UHGV virus genome: UHGV-0041314
DNA length: 64,000 nt
DNA from: a virus
Strand: one strand, 5' to 3'
Shown here: positions 1 through 37,374 of the stretch, one piece after another
Position numbering within the stretch: position 1 is the first letter of the stretch
How the letters are laid out: every line of letters begins with the position of its first letter
Translations under genes and position numbers: made by a program
Notes under the pieces: model-generated
The model's input: the letters and a program-made list of their open reading frames with translations, nothing else
What the model was told of the DNA's origin: nothing
Databases searched by the model: none

Positions 1-684
1 GTTTCAATTCTAGCAGAAGATGGTAACAAGCTGTTTAAAGAGTTTACTAAGTCTAAGAAAAACCCAGAAGGTTGGGATAAAGTTACTACTGAAGCGGTTG
101 ATGCAGATGACTTCGAAGAGAAGTTTGGTTGCAAACCACCATTTGAAGCAGACACTTACTACATCTTGAAAGTAAGTCGTGCAGCAGCTTATAAAGATGG
201 TGCTGTGTGGACAGCTAAACAGTCATTCCCTGTAATGCTGATTGAAGAAGTAAATGGTAAGCGTGTAGCTGTTAAACAGCCGATGAAGAAAATCAAAGCT
301 CAAGCATCTGACAAACATGAAGATGACAAGAACTACGATGTAATTCATCCAGATATTGCAGTTGGTAACGGTTCTTTTGGTAGCGTGATTCTTTCTACTC
401 ACTTCTACACTTTTGAGAACAATGTTTTGACAAAACCTATTCAGGAACAGTTTATCATTGACACCCTTGTACCTTACACTGGCGGTAACGGCGCTAACGG
501 TGAACCTGAACTGGATGAAGACGAACTGGCCATGCTTGGTCTTGACGGTGTTGAAGATAACGGTGAAATCACTGAAGAAGACGCAAAAGACCACAAACCT
601 TCGAATGATTCTGATGACGGTGACGATGAAGACTTGCCAGACCCAGATGACGAAGGAGATGAAGACTTCGATACAGAAGACTAA
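1..684 (+). CDS. hypothetical protein, 5'-partial; extremely acidic C-terminal tail (possible ssDNA-binding-type protein)
   Basis: reading frame open from window start into track ORF 166..684; C-terminus DDGDDEDLPDPDDEGDEDFDTED; hairpin+T-run terminator follows. Confidence 0.5.
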   Translation, partial: VSILAEDGNKLFKEFTKSKKNPEGWDKVTTEAVDADDFEEKFGCKPPFEADTYYILKVSRAAAYKDGAVWTAKQSFPVMLIEEVNGKRVAVKQPMKKIKAQASDKHEDDKNYDVIHPDIAVGNGSFGSVILSTHFYTFENNVLTKPIQEQFIIDTLVPYTGGNGANGEPELDEDELAMLGLDGVEDNGEITEEDAKDHKPSNDSDDGDDEDLPDPDDEGDEDFDTED

Positions 685-702
685 TCTCTAAAAGTTACTT
701 TA

Positions 703-730
703 AAGCCCTGTACTTAGTATGGGGCTTTTT
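703..730 (+). terminator. rho-independent terminator
   Basis: AAGCCC...GGGGCTT hairpin followed by TTTTT. Confidence 0.5.
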
Positions 731-746
731 CATATGGAGAGTCATA

Positions 747-1787
747 ATGGAGCAGTATACGCTAACAAAACTTCCAGATTCAGTTACACATGTCTTTATT
801 GACTCTGACAGTATTGCCTATAAAGGTGCTTGTGTAGTTGAGAAAGCAAAATATAAGTATGTCAATAAACTCACAGCAGAAGAATCTGAACCATTTGATA
901 ATGCAAAAGATGCGGCAAGATGGTTAGCAGACCAGAGAATCCTTGTGGAAGAACTTGGCCTGACATTTGATGAAGATGAATGGGAAAGACAGACTTGGAA
1001 AGAAGCTAAGAGTGAAAAAGAAGCTATCATGGCTACTCAGCAGGTTCTTCAGGAATGGCTTAAAGTTGTTGGTAAAGAAAGAACTTGGGTAGGTTATCTA
1101 ACAGAGAAGGGTGTACATAAACATAAAGACATTAAAGGGCTTGAGCACCAATATCAAGGTAACCGTAAAGATGCTGTCACACCAACACACTTAGTCGCTT
1201 GTCGTGAATATCTTCTGTCAAGACCAGAGTTCAAACTCTTAAAGGGTGGCTTCGAAGCAGATTCCATCGTAATTGCTAAAGCTGAAAAGATGGGTAAGAA
1301 GGCTGCTCTTATGAGTATTGACAAAGACCTTCGACAAGCTGAAGGGACTTATTGTATTGACATGACTTATGAAAAGTCACCACTAATTTTTATTGCTGAT
1401 AATAATGTTGGTGATATCTGGGATTGCCCTATCAAATCAAAACCAAAAGCTGCAAAAACAGTTGGTGTAGGTTTTAAATTTTTGTGTTATCAGGCTGTTG
1501 CTGGAGATAATGCAGACAACTACTTCGGCCTTAAAGGTGCTGGAAAAGTAGCTGTGATGAATGCTTTAGATGGTAAAGAGACCTATAAAGAGTGTCTTGA
1601 CGCTATCTATGAACTCTATGCTAAAAAAGAGTCTTACACCTATGTGTCATGGGATGGACAGACTGTTACCAAAACACCATTAGAGTTAATGGAGCAACAT
1701 TTCTGGATAGCATATCAAGAGAGAAATCCAAAAGATAATTTCTCTTTTAAGAAATATAATTGGGAGCCGTGTATGAATGAAGATTAA
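747..1787 (+). CDS. 5'-3' exonuclease / flap endonuclease (FEN-like, RNase H-type)
   Basis: ATG with GGAGA RBS; N-terminal HVFIDSDSIAYKG resembles the FEN LxDGxxxAYR motif; GLKGAGKVA resembles the H3TH loop. Confidence 0.5.
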   Translation: MEQYTLTKLPDSVTHVFIDSDSIAYKGACVVEKAKYKYVNKLTAEESEPFDNAKDAARWLADQRILVEELGLTFDEDEWERQTWKEAKSEKEAIMATQQVLQEWLKVVGKERTWVGYLTEKGVHKHKDIKGLEHQYQGNRKDAVTPTHLVACREYLLSRPEFKLLKGGFEADSIVIAKAEKMGKKAALMSIDKDLRQAEGTYCIDMTYEKSPLIFIADNNVGDIWDCPIKSKPKAAKTVGVGFKFLCYQAVAGDNADNYFGLKGAGKVAVMNALDGKETYKECLDAIYELYAKKESYTYVSWDGQTVTKTPLELMEQHFWIAYQERNPKDNFSFKKYNWEPCMNED

Positions 1788-7810: not shown

Positions 7811-8009
7811 ACGCCTTTGGGAAGGTTTGGTTGTTGATGCACCAGCCATTGTGATTGGTATGCTTGTTGTTAACCTATTTACTGATTTTGAACAAGGTTC
7901 ATTGTTTGGAGCCATGCTATTATGGGTTATCTTTGAAATATTAGAGATACAGCTAGGCATCACTGAAAAACTAAGAAAACTCGTTTCAAAGTTTTCTAAA
8001 AAGATTTAA
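7803..8009 (+). CDS. small membrane protein (2 predicted TM helices, charged C-terminus)
   Basis: hydrophobic segments then KLRKLVSKFSKKI; terminator follows. Confidence 0.4.
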   Translation: MLKRLWEGLVVDAPAIVIGMLVVNLFTDFEQGSLFGAMLLWVIFEILEIQLGITEKLRKLVSKFSKKI

Positions 8010-23727: not shown

Positions 23728-24513
23728 ATGGGTATTGTAAAAATCATCAATGGCGATATCTTTGCAGCATTTGATAAAGGTAAGTTTGACGTCATCGGTC
23801 ACGGTTGCAACTGTATGAACTTAATGGGTGCAGGTATCGCTGACAAGATTTCTAAACTTTACCCAAAAGCATATGAGACTGATACAGAAGTTTATCTGTA
23901 TGCAGGTGGAATAGGCCACAAGCCCTGTGAGAATTTACTAGGCAATTTCTCTGTAGCACGTTTAAAACAAGGCCGTATAGCTAACCTTTACACTCAGCTT
24001 AAGACTGGTAAAGATGCCCGATACAGTGCTTTAGAGTCATCTTTGAAACAGCTTAACAGATACTGTGAAGTCAATCAGTTGAAGAAAGTCGGGTTACCTA
24101 TGATTGGTGCAGGTATCGGTGGGCTAGACCCTCAAGCCGTCACAGTTATCATTAATCAGGTGATGAAGAGTGTAGATGTTTATCTGTATGTCTACGAAGG
24201 AGAGATGTACCACAAGTTACGCTCAGGTTGGAAGAACTACTGTGAGCCAGAATACTTTGCAGGTGTAGTAACGTTCACAGATGATGCAGTTACCCTCTTC
24301 AGACGAAGAAAAGGTAAGATACATCAAAGTAACCCTCCGGTTGAGAAGATGTCTCTAAGTAACGCTCTAGTTACCCACCTGTCGAAGGGCAATCACAGGA
24401 TAGCCGTAACATTTGGCAGTGATGCAGATACATATATCTATGCAAGAACTGATGAGGATATCGAGACGGTCTTCTCTTCATCGGAAGTTACCTTCTTAGA
24501 CGCAAAGAACTAA
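23728..24513 (+). CDS. macro-domain (ADP-ribose binding/processing) protein
   Basis: GDIF...DVIGHGCNCMNLMGAGIADKI and LPMIGAGIGGL resemble the macro-domain Gly-rich motifs. Confidence 0.5.
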   Translation: MGIVKIINGDIFAAFDKGKFDVIGHGCNCMNLMGAGIADKISKLYPKAYETDTEVYLYAGGIGHKPCENLLGNFSVARLKQGRIANLYTQLKTGKDARYSALESSLKQLNRYCEVNQLKKVGLPMIGAGIGGLDPQAVTVIINQVMKSVDVYLYVYEGEMYHKLRSGWKNYCEPEYFAGVVTFTDDAVTLFRRRKGKIHQSNPPVEKMSLSNALVTHLSKGNHRIAVTFGSDADTYIYARTDEDIETVFSSSEVTFLDAKN

Positions 24514-24590
24514 GAAACTCTGTATAATATTCACAATATACTAAGCCTTTCTTATCTGGTAAATTTTTCAGGTAAGGAGGGCTTTTTTAT

Positions 24591-24780
24591 TTCAGGATTG
24601 TGCAGGTAGAGTTCCGGACAGAAATCTGTAGAGAAAATTTTGAACTCCAAAGAGAAAATTCATTTTCAAACTGTGCAGGTAATCTCCAAAGAGCTTTTTC
24701 ATTTTCAAAACGTGCAGACCCCGCTCAGGTCGGGCAAGAAAAATCATTTTAGAATTGTGCAGGTAGGTGGGTGCAGGTGG
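24591..24780 (+). repeat. direct-repeat cluster (TGTGCAGGT core with CATTTTCAAA companion), iteron-like
   Basis: GTGCAGGT-type core at ~24599, 24672, 24712 (CGTGCAGAC variant), 24756 and 24770; CATTTTCAAA-like at ~24661, 24699, 24745. Confidence 0.45.
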
Positions 24781-24941
24781 GGATGTCGCCATTTCTCACA
24801 AGGCTACCACATCTGGAAATAAAAGTCAACAGAAAAATTTGTAGCGGATTGAAAAATAATTCTTGATTGTAGTTCTGTTTTGTGGTAGTCGCGTGCGCCC
24901 GTTTCATTACAGTTTTTGCAAAAATATTTTTAAAATTCCTA

Positions 24942-24970
24942 TTGACTCCTCGGCTATGGTTATTTAATAT
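24942..24970 (+). promoter_or_regulatory. sigma70-like promoter for the small-gene array
   Basis: TTGACT - 17 bp - TAATAT, about 50 bp upstream of ATG 25021. Confidence 0.5.
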
Positions 24971-25020
24971 TTGCATCAGACGGGCAAGCCAGCCCACTTC
25001 CTAAACTGGAGAACTGAAAA

Positions 25021-25227
25021 ATGACTTACTACCGTGAATTAATGGTTACAACTAACGTTAACACAAAGGTAAAACGTTTTTACATGAAAATCTGTGGCGT
25101 ATGGTCCAGAATATCAGAAGCCGACTATTGCAACTATGTAGAAACGGCTATTAATTCTAATTGCTACCTTACAAGAAACACTAAGAAATTTACAAGGCAG
25201 ACAGCGATTTACTACTACGACAAATAA
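25021..25227 (+). CDS. small hypothetical protein (68 aa), cassette-flanked array gene 1
   Basis: ATG directly after conserved leader CCTAAACTGGAGAACTGAAAA; sigma70-like promoter upstream. Confidence 0.5.
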   Translation: MTYYRELMVTTNVNTKVKRFYMKICGVWSRISEADYCNYVETAINSNCYLTRNTKKFTRQTAIYYYDK

Positions 25228-25315
25228 AGTACTTTACAGGGGGCTTAAAAGCTGATATCTTAAGCCCCAGATAAAGAGCTTTACTAAATTAACCCTTAAA
25301 CTAGGAGATTCAAAA
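25228..25315 (+). repeat. type-A intergenic cassette (PeSL-like)
   Basis: AGTACTTTACA-GGGGCTTA...TAAGCCCC-AGATAAAGAGCTTTAC...CTTAAACTAGGAGATTCAAAA-ATG; TTTACA - 17 bp - TAAAGT spans the stem-loop. Confidence 0.6.
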
Positions 25316-25696: not shown

Positions 25697-25781
25697 AGTA
25701 CTTTACAAGGGGCTTATAGTTCGATAGAGTAAGCCCCAGATAAAGAGCTTTACCACTCAATCCTAAATTGGAGATTCTAAA
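25697..25781 (+). repeat. type-A intergenic cassette
   Basis: near-identical copy with loop variant. Confidence 0.6.
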
Positions 25782-27473: not shown

Positions 27474-27632
27474 ATGTTTTGTGCAGGTGATAAAGTTGTC
27501 TGGAATGATATAGATGACGGTTTATGTACGAAAGTTGTTGTTATCTTAGAAATTGATTATATCACTGGTGTTGCAACTGTAGCAGATAATGATATAATCT
27601 TTGATGTCTTAATTAGTGAACTGTCAAAATAA
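27474..27632 (+). CDS. small hypothetical protein (52 aa), array gene 7, not in ORF track
   Basis: type-B cassette and leader precede ATG; my translation MFCAGDKVVWNDIDDGLCTKVVVILEIDYITGVATVADNDIIFDVLISELSK. Confidence 0.4.
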   Translation: MFCAGDKVVWNDIDDGLCTKVVVILEIDYITGVATVADNDIIFDVLISELSK

Positions 27633-31929: not shown

Positions 31930-33070
31930 GGGGCTGTTAAGTTACTTTGAAGTTACGTAAAAGAGGCTATAAAGTTACGTAAATGCTAGCCCCCTTAACA
32001 TTTTCTTAACAATTTCTTAACAATCCCTACATAGTTATGCTTTTAAGGCACTTGTTAGCAACTTGTTAGCCCCTTGTTAAATCTCTGTTAAGACCACGTA
32101 AAAGCCTTGTAAGAGTCTTTAGCATAGCCTTTAAAGCCTCTGTAAAGCCCTATAAATAGGTGTCTGTATAGCTGGGGTGTAATTACTAGGAAGAGACTTA
32201 AAAGAGCTTATAAGGAGCTATAGAGAGCTTTTAAGAGGGCTATTTAGAGAATCACTAAGAGAGAGAGGGAACGATAAGAAAAGAGATAGTGACCATGTTA
32301 ATAGCTTGTTAAAAAGATTAAACACTTGTTAGGAACTTGTTAATTATCTTAACAAAATAACTCTTAAAAATTAACTTGTTAGCTCTTGTTAGTCATCTGT
32401 TAAGACTCTGTAAAGCCTATGTATCAACTGTTAAGAACTTGTTACACCCTTGTTAGTTCTGTTAAGAATCTGTTAAGACCTCTGAAGAGATGTTAAGAGG
32501 ATGTAGTAGCTGTTAAGAGATTGTTAAGGATATTTTAAAATTCTGCAAAGGGATGGTAAGGGAGCTGTTAAGGGCTACCAAGCAGATATACATCTTCTAC
32601 AGATATTTTTCAGTTCCTTCAAAGACCCTAAAAAATGACTTGATAGTCCTATTTTATAAAAATTTTAAAATTCTGAATAATTACCTAGACAGTCTTTTAA
32701 AAATACAGGCATAAACAGGCTTATAAGATACCTTGTTAGTACCGTGTTAGACCTTGTGAGATAAGGTCTGTAAAGATATTCCTGTTAAGTTTGTTAAAAC
32801 AGTCTATATAGAGGCTTAGTATTTCCTAGTGAACACCTATAGATGGTATCATAGCTGACATAGAGATTAAGAGGTGTATAGGAGCTTCTAAGAGGGTATA
32901 GAGAGATGGTTAATGTGATTGTATAGGTTGTTAAGAAGGCTTGTTAGAAGAGTGTTTAGAAGGGCTATACAGAGGGGCTATTAAGACCACTAGATAGATA
33001 CTAAGATACTATATAGTACTATATAACTATATATAGAGAGTAAGCTTAAGAAGGTTGTTAAGAAGGGTAG
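31930..33070 (+). repeat. dense array of degenerate short direct repeats (core TGTTA[AG]G / CTTGTTAG) in a non-coding region
   Basis: about 28 forward-orientation copies counted by eye across ~1.1 kb; no ORF of 60 aa or more in the surrounding ~1.6 kb except a shadow ORF. Confidence 0.6.
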
Positions 33071-36690: not shown

Positions 36691-36976
36691 CGTTAAACTC
36701 TCTGACGAAGAAATAGTTGACTTTATTATTACCTACCATAAGGTCAAAGCAGGTATTCTCAAAAGGTTTGTTGTAGGCATCGTATGAAGTGTACGTATCA
36801 GCTACTTGTTTAGTATTGAGCTTTTTACTTGATGGGTTTAAGAGGCCACCATATAGTTTCTTGATAGCCTCTTCTACAACAGACCAGATGATTTCGTCAG
36901 TAATTTCTTCGTACAGGTCAAGTTCACGCTCTAGTGAGAAGTCACAAATAGGGAAGATAACCTGTACTTTGCTCAT
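36683..36976 (-). CDS. hypothetical protein
   Basis: track ORF. Confidence 0.4.
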   Translation of the reverse strand: MSKVQVIFPICDFSLERELDLYEEITDEIIWSVVEEAIKKLYGGLLNPSSKKLNTKQVADTYTSYDAYNKPFENTCFDLMVGNNKVNYFFVREFNDE

Positions 36977-37374
36977 TAACGAATAACCTGTGAGACTTGT
37001 ATTGCTTCAGTTACAGACAAATCACCAACTTTCTCTTCTTTGATGAAAGTAAAGGTGAGTTCAACAGGTTCTTGCTCTTCTTGCTCAACTGGAATACCGT
37101 TAAGCTCATCAAAGATTGATTGGGTAGTCCAGTCTTCTCCACCATCTGGATAGTGGATGGCATAAAGAGGGAACTCTTTATCAAACCAACCAAATACAGG
37201 GCATCCATCTTCATCATCTCGCACTCGATGAAGGGTGCTTCCAGACCCTGTAAAACGAAGGAATAAATCTCCGTTGCACTTGAATATTACTGCGTCGGCA
37301 AAACCAATGTCTTCTCGACAATCATGACCAAATGTGTCCACCTTTACTTGAATATCTCGAACATCTTTATTCAT
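36976..37374 (-). CDS. hypothetical protein
   Basis: track ORF; GAGAGAGG RBS. Confidence 0.4.
   Translation of the reverse strand: MNKDVRDIQVKVDTFGHDCREDIGFADAVIFKCNGDLFLRFTGSGSTLHRVRDDEDGCPVFGWFDKEFPLYAIHYPDGGEDWTTQSIFDELNGIPVEQEEQEPVELTFTFIKEEKVGDLSVTEAIQVSQVIR

Follow-up and report, generated by a model that had tools for sequence, protein, structure and literature searches.

According to our analysis, the 64,000-nucleotide stretch of virus genome UHGV-0041314 studied here (hereafter, the window) belongs to a Felixounavirus, that is, a Felix-O1-like myophage, and harbors a repeat array in the gene-free gap that extends from the terminator of a macro-domain gene to the first promoter of a block of small genes (-35 hexamer at 24942). 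The array consists of four same-oriented units with the core TCATTTTCAA-N3-GTGCAGGT, plus a fifth, bare GTGCAGGT. Its anatomy, its uniqueness within the genome, and its deep conservation are established, and its readings as a coding sequence, a structured RNA, a genome terminus, or a set of DnaA boxes are excluded. As to its role, sequence comparison leads us to favor, tentatively, an iteron-type array of protein-binding sites acting as a boundary or control element, of which a replication origin is the main rival. The repeats of the array, in order, are the following.

24582 to 24607, plus strand: unit U0, CTTTTTTATTTCAGGATTGTGCAGGT; repeat families D4 (24578 to 24605 against 24690 to 24717, 71%) and D2; mean pairwise identity 0.91
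24621 to 24644, plus strand: decayed half-units GAAATCTGTAGAGAAAATTTTGAA, without the GTGCAG end; repeat family D5 (24621 to 24639 against 24642 to 24660, 79%)
24645 to 24680, plus strand: unit U1, CTCCAAAGAG-AAAATTCATTTTCAAACTGTGCAGGT; pairwise identity 0.97 in the left part and 0.93 in the core
24684 to 24719, plus strand: unit U2, CTCCAAAGAG-CTTTTTCATTTTCAAAACGTGCAGAC; pairwise identity of the core 0.91
24728 to 24764, plus strand: unit U3, GGTCGGGCAAGAAAAATCATTTTAGAATTGTGCAGGT; left part degenerate in Felixounavirus, a clean unit in Mooglevirus
24771 to 24778, plus strand: fifth GTGCAGGT (the "tandem doublet"), with no companion motif; window-type allele only

A preliminary description of this stretch had reported a short core occurring at least five times and a companion motif occurring three times. 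Both counts are borne out: GTGCAGGT is found exactly at 24600, 24673, 24757, and 24771 and as the variant GTGCAGAC at 24712, and the companion is found as CATTTTCAAA at 24661 and 24700 and as CATTTTAGAA at 24745, in addition to a fourth, degenerate copy (TATTTCAGGA at 24589) which overlaps the T-run of the terminator. The regular spacing of the middle copies and the terminal doublet are likewise recovered in the start-to-start distances of GTGCAG, which are 73, 39, 45, and 14 nt. The 9-mer that had been put forward as the repeated unit, instead, gives way to a unit of 34 to 39 nt, the best-conserved part of which is a composite of about 22 nt, W5-TCATTTTCAA-N3-GTGCA. The emphasis on GTGCAGGT was also misplaced, this being the less conserved half of the composite, and the corresponding end reads GTGCATAG in Erwinia phage phiEa104 and in the phage contig L046. 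The units are asymmetric and not palindromic, and all lie on the plus strand; only U1 holds a short inverted repeat, GAAAAT-TC-ATTTTC. A repeat finder returned three 34-nt copies at 24645, 24684, and 24729, the second and third being 82% and 71% identical to the first, and the fourth copy, U0, takes its T-rich left part from the terminator T-run.

The genome-wide frequency of the motif, on which the preliminary description had made its proposal depend, is low. The composite 21-mer TCATTTTCAAANTGTGCAGGT, allowing up to 3 mismatches, has three matches in the window, all in the array, against 0.01 expected. A whole-genome check was carried out on NBEco004 (L039), a complete genome of 85.5 kb which is 99.4% identical to the window at the locus, and there, too, the composite was detected at the array locus only. 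The bare 8-mer GTGCAGGT is in excess, with 10 copies in the window against 1.6 expected (no shuffle gave 10) and 11 copies in NBEco004 against approximately 1.4 expected. Since the composite is unique to the locus and 7 of the 11 bare 8-mers of NBEco004 lie within 3.7 kb around the array, the motif cannot be considered common genome-wide. Extra copies of GTGCAGGT are located in the window at 23828 and 24107, inside the macro-domain gene, and at 27481, in a small gene of the downstream block.

Conservation of the array and its setting

When the 701 bases around the array were compared with database sequences, 223 phage records matched at 83 to 99% identity, nearly all of them from Felixounavirus phages of Escherichia and Salmonella. 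The homologous gap was collected from IMG/VR contigs and GenBank records, yielding 23 distinct sequences which were aligned. Four units are present in nearly all of them, and in the aligned set U0 reads GCTTTTTCATTTCAGRATTGTGCAGGT, U1 reads ACTCCAAAGAG-AAAATTCATTTTCAAACTGTGCAGGT, and U2 reads ACTCCAAAGAG-CTTTTTCATTTTCAAAACGTGCAGA. The array was identified in Felixounavirus, Suspvirus (SUSP2-like, L027), Mooglevirus (Michonne/Mordin, L009, L036), the Kolesnikvirus phiEa104, and L046, an unclassified phage of 88 kb. In several lineages its position is constant, with the macro-domain gene and its terminator on one side and the promoter at the head of the small-gene block on the other. The elements that frame it in the window are as follows.

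23728 to 24513, plus strand: macro-domain gene (Pfam Macro)
24543 to 24584, plus strand: intrinsic terminator of the operon of the macro-domain gene (Felix O1 "t13"), a 17-pair stem followed by TTTTTTATTT; terminator scan
24919 to 24976, plus strand: first promoter of the small-gene block, with the AT-rich block AAAAATATTTTTAAAA, -35 TTGACT at 24942 to 24947, 17 nt, and -10 TAATAT at 24965 to 24970; promoter scan
25021 to 25227, plus strand: first small gene (68 amino acids), present in some relatives only

The placement of terminator and promoter given in the preliminary description is thus confirmed by scans (24543 to 24584 and 24942 to 24970), with 164 bp between the end of the last repeat and the -35 hexamer. 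The T-run of the terminator (24583 to 24590) extends into U0, of which it makes up the left part; in Mooglevirus, U0 reads GCTTTTTCATTTCAAATTTGTGCAGGT. The terminator hairpin is kept in all relatives aligned, and the promoter is kept in all relatives including phiEa104 (TTGACT, 17 nt, TATATT). The terminator arm and the region of the transcription start are separated by 407 to 410 nt in 21 of the 23 sequences, whichever of the two alleles described below is present, and by our own count the T-run and the -35 hexamer are about 357 nt apart in the window and about 365 nt apart in phiEa104. In relatives which do not carry the 68-amino-acid gene, the promoter leads directly to the homologue of the second small gene of the window, so that array and promoter are more stable than the gene that they precede.

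The more distant relatives define the core. In the Mooglevirus group (Citrobacter phages Michonne, Mordin, and Moogle and Shigella phages), which is approximately 70% identical to the window, U3 is a clean third copy, GACTCCAAAGGG-AAAATTCATTTTCAATTTGTGCAGGT. In phiEa104, whose macro-domain protein is 45% identical to that of the window over the macro domain, the gap after the terminator contains four direct repeats with periods of 37, 37, and 39 bp, which read, in order, GGACAGCTTTTTCATTTTCAATTTGTGCATAG, GGCAACGTTTTTTATTTTAAAATCGTGCATAA, GGCAAGAAAAATCATTTTCGATTTGTGCATAG, and GGAGGGGTTTTTCATTTTGAATTTGTGCATAG. The third of these shares 31 of 34 bases with U3 of the window up to GTGCA in a comparison made by eye, and the array is followed by a C-rich tract and, about 200 bp on, by the promoter. 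The distant contig L046, loosely syntenic with the window (SLT-like, PNKP-like, and macro genes), harbors five units with a period of 36 to 37 bp after a short macro-domain gene; a DNA search with its first 1.6 kb returned no close relatives. Three units are found in the lineage L042/L051/L105, and L104, a more distant phage, carries the macro gene and no array. Across lineages, the period of the units is 36 to 45 bp. The core common to all of the lineages that have the array is the composite W5-TCATTTTCAA-N3-GTGCA, whose 3' continuation is GGT in Felixounavirus, Suspvirus, and Mooglevirus and TAG in phiEa104 and L046. A search for the array in bacterial genomes gave 52 matches, all in unrelated taxa (e.g., Bacteroidales and Ignavibacteria) and not inspected, with none in Enterobacterales, and the unrelated viral matches are coding repeats.

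Within the aligned set, the mean pairwise identity is 0.91 to 0.93 for the unit cores and 0.97 for the CTCCAAAGAG parts, compared with 0.73 to 0.79 for the spacers (0.79 for the stretch of decayed half-units at 24621 to 24644) and 0.60 for the segment after U3. The unit cores being conserved more than the spacers between them, the comparison indicates that selection acts on the sites. This bears on whether the units could be relics without function, left when the terminator tail was duplicated in tandem long ago, each carrying a terminator-like T-run. In favor of such relics are the overlap of U0 with the terminator T-run, the G/C-TTTTTCATTTT reading of U2 and of the phiEa104 units, which resembles a terminator tail, and the variation in copy number from 3 to 5. 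Relics, however, would not hold an identity of 0.91 to 0.97 while the spacers drift to 0.73 to 0.79, nor would they stay recognizable between genera in which the flanking protein has fallen to 45% identity, and we regard this explanation as very unlikely. A CRISPR-like mini-array was also considered and rejected, as the units are imperfect, the period is 39 to 45 nt, and the "spacers" are conserved between genomes and not variable.

The same alignments speak against a small repeat-containing protein encoded on the minus strand (24592 to 24792, 66 amino acids, with a repeated LHxLKMxxLFG), an interpretation to which we give hardly any credit. A frame of 67 to 97 codons is open in the Felixounavirus, SUSP2-like, and L030 sequences, and an open reading frame (ORF) is annotated at the locus in the records of Bas63, Pr103Blw, and Mordin; in Bas63, which carries the window-type allele, bas63_0096 and bas63_0097 cover the repeats. 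Nevertheless, the frame is broken in Mooglevirus by indels of 2 nt and 4 nt and in phiEa104 by the 37-nt period, and its start codon, lying within the allelic segment, does not exist in the C-rich allele. Furthermore, within the units the would-be synonymous sites are invariant, whereas the whole N3 codon varies freely, the reverse of what a coding sequence would show; spacings of 39 and 45 nt are by themselves enough to carry an open frame through the units. Because synonymous sites are invariant, variation is concentrated in N3, and the frame is broken in relatives, selection is seen from the sequences to act on the DNA and not on a protein.

The segment between the array and the promoter

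Two further segments separate the last full unit from the promoter.

24769 to 24816, no strand assigned: core of an allelic segment of about 52 nt; boundaries approximate, from alignments; pairwise identity 0.60
24817 to 24867, no strand assigned: conserved block AAAAGTCAA...AAAAATAATTCTTGA; pairwise identity 0.91, with 76% of the columns invariant

After U3, the aligned sequences fall into two alleles of equal length, approximately 52 nt. The allele of the window is G-rich (GGGTGCAGGTGGGGATGTCGCC...) and includes the fifth GTGCAGGT at 24771, which is absent from all genomes with the other allele and deleted in L025. The other allele contains the C-rich tract TTTTATAGAGAGCCAGACCAACCCCTCTCCCCCTCTTACTCCCCCTCTCCCC (CCAACCCCTCTCCCCCTCTTACTCCCCCTCTCCCC) and is probably ancestral, since it is found in Suspvirus and Mooglevirus and, in a similar form, in phiEa104. 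We examined whether the window allele could be an inversion of the C-rich one and discarded this idea, the similarity being not above that of shuffled controls. The C-rich tract carries many G runs on its opposite strand; besides the window (24769 to 24816), the allelic position was inspected in L004, L005, L007, L012, L016, L002, and L003. Several independent assemblies and GenBank records end exactly at this tract, one of them in a Nextera adapter and one in N-rich sequence, which points either to difficulties in sequencing or assembling it or to an unusual property of the DNA itself.

These breaks could be taken to mean that the array is part of the genome terminus or of a packaging signal, i.e., the boundary of a terminal repeat or a pac site. 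The records and assemblies EC106, Andreotti, KhF1, L012, and L016 indeed break right after the last unit. Moreover, in L046 (approximately 560 to 1050, minus strand), the five units adjoin a stretch of about 170 bp with at least 10 TTAACA/TTAAC motifs, which recalls the TGTTAA/TTAACA-rich terminal repeat of Felixounavirus. The Felixounavirus Pr103Blw is reported to package by direct terminal repeats of 581 bp (PMC8303462), and its record annotates the 581-bp repeat at both ends. This repeat, defined with PhageTerm, however, maps to 31989 to 32579 of the window, approximately 7.2 kb downstream of the array. The terminal-repeat segment occupies 270 places in 243 records and coincides again with a record end in phage D4, which stems from a study also reporting terminal repeats (PMC11737134); the array gap, in comparison, occurs twice in just 2 of 223 records, of which the one inspected (KhF1) is an overlap in a low-quality assembly. 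The breaks look technical, one contig ending in a Nextera adapter and KhF1 in N-rich low-quality sequence, and the TTAACA-rich stretch of L046 has no alignable similarity to the Felixounavirus terminal repeat. A terminus at the array is accordingly the least credible of the readings considered here, and it is the segment from 31989 to 32579 that, by its correspondence to Pr103Blw, probably marks the physical genome ends. Short CTTGTTAAG/CTGTTAAGA repeats are dense in this segment; of the 65 TGTTAA hexamers of the window, 16 fall between 32000 and 33000, and three copies of TTAACA are located at its left edge.

On the minus strand, by our own reading, the conserved block presents a putative promoter with TTGACT at 24829 to 24824, 17 nt, and TGgTAGCCT, the -10 element lying at 24806 to 24801. 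Such a promoter, together with the terminator hairpin, which can form on a minus-strand RNA as well, would be in keeping with an element operating at the RNA level, either as a leftward noncoding RNA starting near 24794 and ending at the terminator hairpin or through repeats acting in read-through RNA. The promoter scan, however, leaves the minus-strand site unreported, below its threshold, and in the C-rich allele the -10 element would read TAAGAG, with a poor last base. The predicted folds of the two strands are no more stable than those of shuffled sequences (z = 0.04 and -1.06), the alignment across genera yielded neither a consensus structure nor a covariation signal (RNAalifold energies of -10.6 and -5.6 kcal/mol over approximately 300 columns), and no Rfam family was assigned, the best E-value being 0.062 for the terminator hairpin only. 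An RNA-level element is, hence, improbable. A start near 24794 would also give an almost leaderless message for the predicted 66-codon minus-strand ORF at 24592 to 24792, which is not conserved.

Candidate functions

Of the regulator-binding array or origin-type iterons suggested in the preliminary description, the shared premise, a cis-acting array of protein-binding sites, is well supported, given that the units are asymmetric, of one orientation, unique in the genome, and conserved in position across at least four genera and an unclassified lineage, with cores more conserved than spacers. Both specific functions meet with difficulties: an origin would have to work without a strongly unstable AT-rich element beside the repeats, a skew inflection, or a recognizable initiator or DNA-binding gene among the 20 flanking genes, and an operator would be distant and non-palindromic, with its motif missing from other early promoters.

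The reading that we tentatively favor is a protein-bound boundary or control element, because the array starts on the T-run of the operon terminator and its distance from the promoter that opens the small-gene block hardly varies. Iterons and other arrays of monomer-binding sites are laid out in this way, with asymmetric sites repeated in direct orientation. The array would accordingly be a lineage-conserved, cis-acting set of four same-oriented asymmetric sites of about 22 bp, with one additional copy in the window allele, on which several copies of one sequence-specific DNA-binding protein, of phage or host origin, would dock. Together, the docked proteins would form a multi-protein complex on the DNA, and the bound complex may help to halt transcription that arrives from the upstream operon or determine how active the border region is. 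Protein binding is what we infer from the pattern of conservation, and the role of the complex would lie one step further.

Several observations weigh against this assignment. The roadblock function, in the first place, is pure conjecture. The sites span 164 to 345 bp upstream of the promoter, a poor fit to a classical operator, and the motif is absent from the many other early promoters, both in the rest of the window and in the NBEco004 genome. There is no conserved helical phasing, the period ranging from 36 to 45 bp among lineages: the spacings of 39 and 45 bp in Felixounavirus add up to 84 bp, i.e., 8 turns, but the period is 36 to 37 bp in L046 and 37 to 39 bp in phiEa104. The copy number is not fixed either, as only 3 units occur in the L042/L051/L105 lineage. 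When the 10 genes upstream and the 10 genes downstream were scanned with Pfam, no DNA-binding domain was detected. The macro-domain protein, by virtue of its extra C-terminal domain, was evaluated as the binder and rejected, since L046 has the array without the domain and L104 the domain without the array. Finally, the PhageMaP preprint calls the region of Bas63 from approximately 46 to 66 kb, which includes the locus, uniformly non-essential in the laboratory, a statement made at the level of the region, and the array region may thus be dispensable.

Two known systems are close to the array in some respects. In sopC of F, twelve 43-bp direct repeats are bound by SopB; the tandem direct repeats and the period near 40 bp are shared with the array, and the short inverted repeat of U1 is a further likeness, which does not extend to the other units. 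However, the 20 scanned neighbors of the array have no partition or other DNA-binding Pfam domain, and a virulent phage has no obvious need for partition. In the Fis arrays upstream of the UP element of rrnB P1, as in the phage, several conserved sites precede a promoter, and the AT-rich block of the phage promoter may resemble an UP element; the phage array, at -165 to -345, lies further away than the rrn Fis sites, and, when inspected by eye, its units depart from the 15-bp G...C pattern of Fis. Sites for sigma-70 promoters, sigma-E, sigma-54, CRP, IHF, Fis, Fur, and EcoKI were also sought in the units by eye against consensus sequences, and none fits in both sequence and spacing.

A replication origin, which we deem doubtful, would employ the units as iterons for an initiator, which would either melt the adjacent DNA or place the T7-like primase-helicase there, possibly assisted by transcription from the adjacent promoter. 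Four to five asymmetric direct repeats of about 22 bp in one orientation, unique in the genome and deeply conserved within a large noncoding region, with moderately AT-rich flanks and a strong promoter, speak for such an origin, and the C-rich tract of the ancestral allele would give a G-rich leftward RNA of R-loop-favoring composition. In the iterons of lambda ori, P1 oriR, and T4 oriE, as in the array, several asymmetric sites of about 20 bp are found in one orientation, genome-unique, noncoding, and by a promoter. Their period is, however, about 22 bp, approximately half of the 36 to 45 bp of the array, which, in addition, has no marked AT-rich unwinding element adjacent to it, no initiator gene recognized among the 20 neighboring genes, and, in the window phage, no DnaA boxes. 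In a nearest-neighbor stability profile, no 40-bp segment beside the repeats belongs to the least stable 1% of the window: the flanks have values of -44.5 to -46 kcal/mol per 40 bp, their least stable stretches being at about -44.5 to -45.5, whereas the 99th percentile over the window is -43.3 and the mean is -50.1 (standard deviation, 3.0). Cumulative GC skew has no inflection at 24.6 kb and follows the direction of transcription in this genome. The Pfam scan of the 20 flanking genes yielded no Rep, O-like, DnaA-like, or other initiator-like domain, a result that small uncharacterized proteins could escape. In NBEco004, the array is approximately 25 to 30 kb away from the primase-helicase and polymerase genes, and the gap next to the DNA polymerase gene (36849 to 37105) looks like a more conventional origin candidate. 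This gap is very AT-rich and lies where the DNA polymerase gene and the operon with the primase-helicase gene diverge; it contains an inverted repeat of 27 nt, and its CTTTTAAG/CTGTTAAG and CTTTTAAG/CTGTTAAGTAAC repeats recall the motif of the terminal repeat. The location of the array inside the segment reported as non-essential is weak evidence against an origin, because phages often have back-up origins.

By analogy with T5, the array could also be a pause or anchoring site for DNA entry, the small-gene block entering first with the right end and the array marking the point of pause or hold, which we regard as quite improbable. Given the terminal repeat at 31989 to 32579, the array is located approximately 7.8 kb, or 9% of the genome, from the right end, and the interval contains only small genes, which have promoters of their own and are read in the direction of that end. 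In Felix O1, ORFs 16 and 20 to 22 of the small-gene block peak at 5 min (PMC3185647). In T5, the first-step-transfer region takes up 7.9% of the genome, and at its border lies a conserved untranslated region which is rich in repeats and contains DnaA boxes (Davison, bioRxiv 10.1101/866236). Like the array, this T5 iss region lies at the inner edge of a terminal early-gene block which accounts for 8 to 9% of the genome and whose transcription runs in the direction of the genome end, and in both cases noncoding repeats are conserved better than the neighboring ORFs. The T5 iss region, however, measures 1.2 kb, combines palindromes and inverted repeats with pairs of consensus DnaA boxes, and is itself part of a 10-kb terminal repeat, whereas the array is about 190 bp of direct repeats without DnaA boxes, outside a 581-bp terminal repeat, in a phage not known to inject its DNA in two steps. 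The parallel does not go beyond position.

Each of the four units of phiEa104 qualifies as a DnaA box with one mismatch; matches of this kind nevertheless number no more than chance predicts in that phage (9 against 8.8). In the window, no unit within 24591 to 24780 matches TTWTNCACA with up to one mismatch, the units reading ACCTGCACA with three mismatches, and overall such matches are as frequent as expected by chance. Furthermore, array and terminal repeat are not equally far apart in all relatives, the distance being approximately 4.4 kb in Felix O1, 5.9 kb in Pr103Blw, and 7.2 kb in the window, and there is no evidence for two-step injection by Felix-O1-like phages or for which end enters first. 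It is with the same low expectation that we mention a broader form of this idea, in which Felix-O1-like myophages would deliver or deploy their genome in two stages, the right-terminal early block (approximately 5 to 9%) being the first-transfer or host-takeover module and the array, bound by a host or phage protein, its cis-acting inner boundary.

Genome context and significance

Upstream of the array, a long rightward operon comprises replication, nucleotide metabolism, rII, lysis, and macro-domain genes. In Bas63, the macro-domain ("phosphatase") gene closes a long rightward series which includes rIIA/rIIB, polynucleotide kinase, and spanins, and it is followed by a 507-bp gap (64.06 to 64.57 kb) and then by a run of small hypothetical genes. 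The small-gene block of the window fills the last 7.8 kb or so up to the right genome end. Its first promoter is annotated as a promoter in the record of phage ASO1A. We take the AT-rich block AAAAATATTTTTAAAATTCCT (24919 to 24947) to resemble closely the UP element of Escherichia coli rrnB P1, a likeness that would suggest a very strong host-type promoter. Further downstream, the gaps at 25228 to 25300 and 25697 to 25770 repeat a cassette in which a GC-rich hairpin, GGGGCTTAA...TTAAGCCCC, stands between a -35-like TTTACA and a -10-like TATCTT. The cassette is probably present in every gap of the block up to about 31.9 kb; presumably, it is comparable to the promoter-stem-loop cassettes of hyperplastic regions in T4-type phages. 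The Felix O1 genome paper lists it as a 57-bp repeat.

That paper, published in 2010, also lists the hairpin after the macro-domain gene as terminator t13 (7947 to 7994) and states that the temporal control of transcription is unknown, and it names no replication origin (PMC3185647). It lists only exact repeats of at least 24 bp, and the array repeats are not mentioned (PMC3185647). Full-text searches of the literature found no description of them. The element is, hence, an undescribed member of a familiar class, the direct-repeat arrays of protein-binding sites, and it stands out for its conservation across genera and for its position.

Felix O1 and its relatives are abundant, have long been used for Salmonella typing, and are now employed in phage therapy and biocontrol. 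In these phages, the array is the most conspicuous conserved noncoding element at the border between the long operon and the terminal early-gene block, and its motif has outlasted most of the surrounding protein sequence. Spurious ORFs annotated over the repeats in many database records can be corrected. If genome delivery in two stages were true of these myophages, two-step genome transfer would no longer be peculiar to T5-like siphophages. In any case, the array of about 190 bp is a small, concrete target through which a regulator, an origin, or a signal for DNA entry could come to light in these phages.

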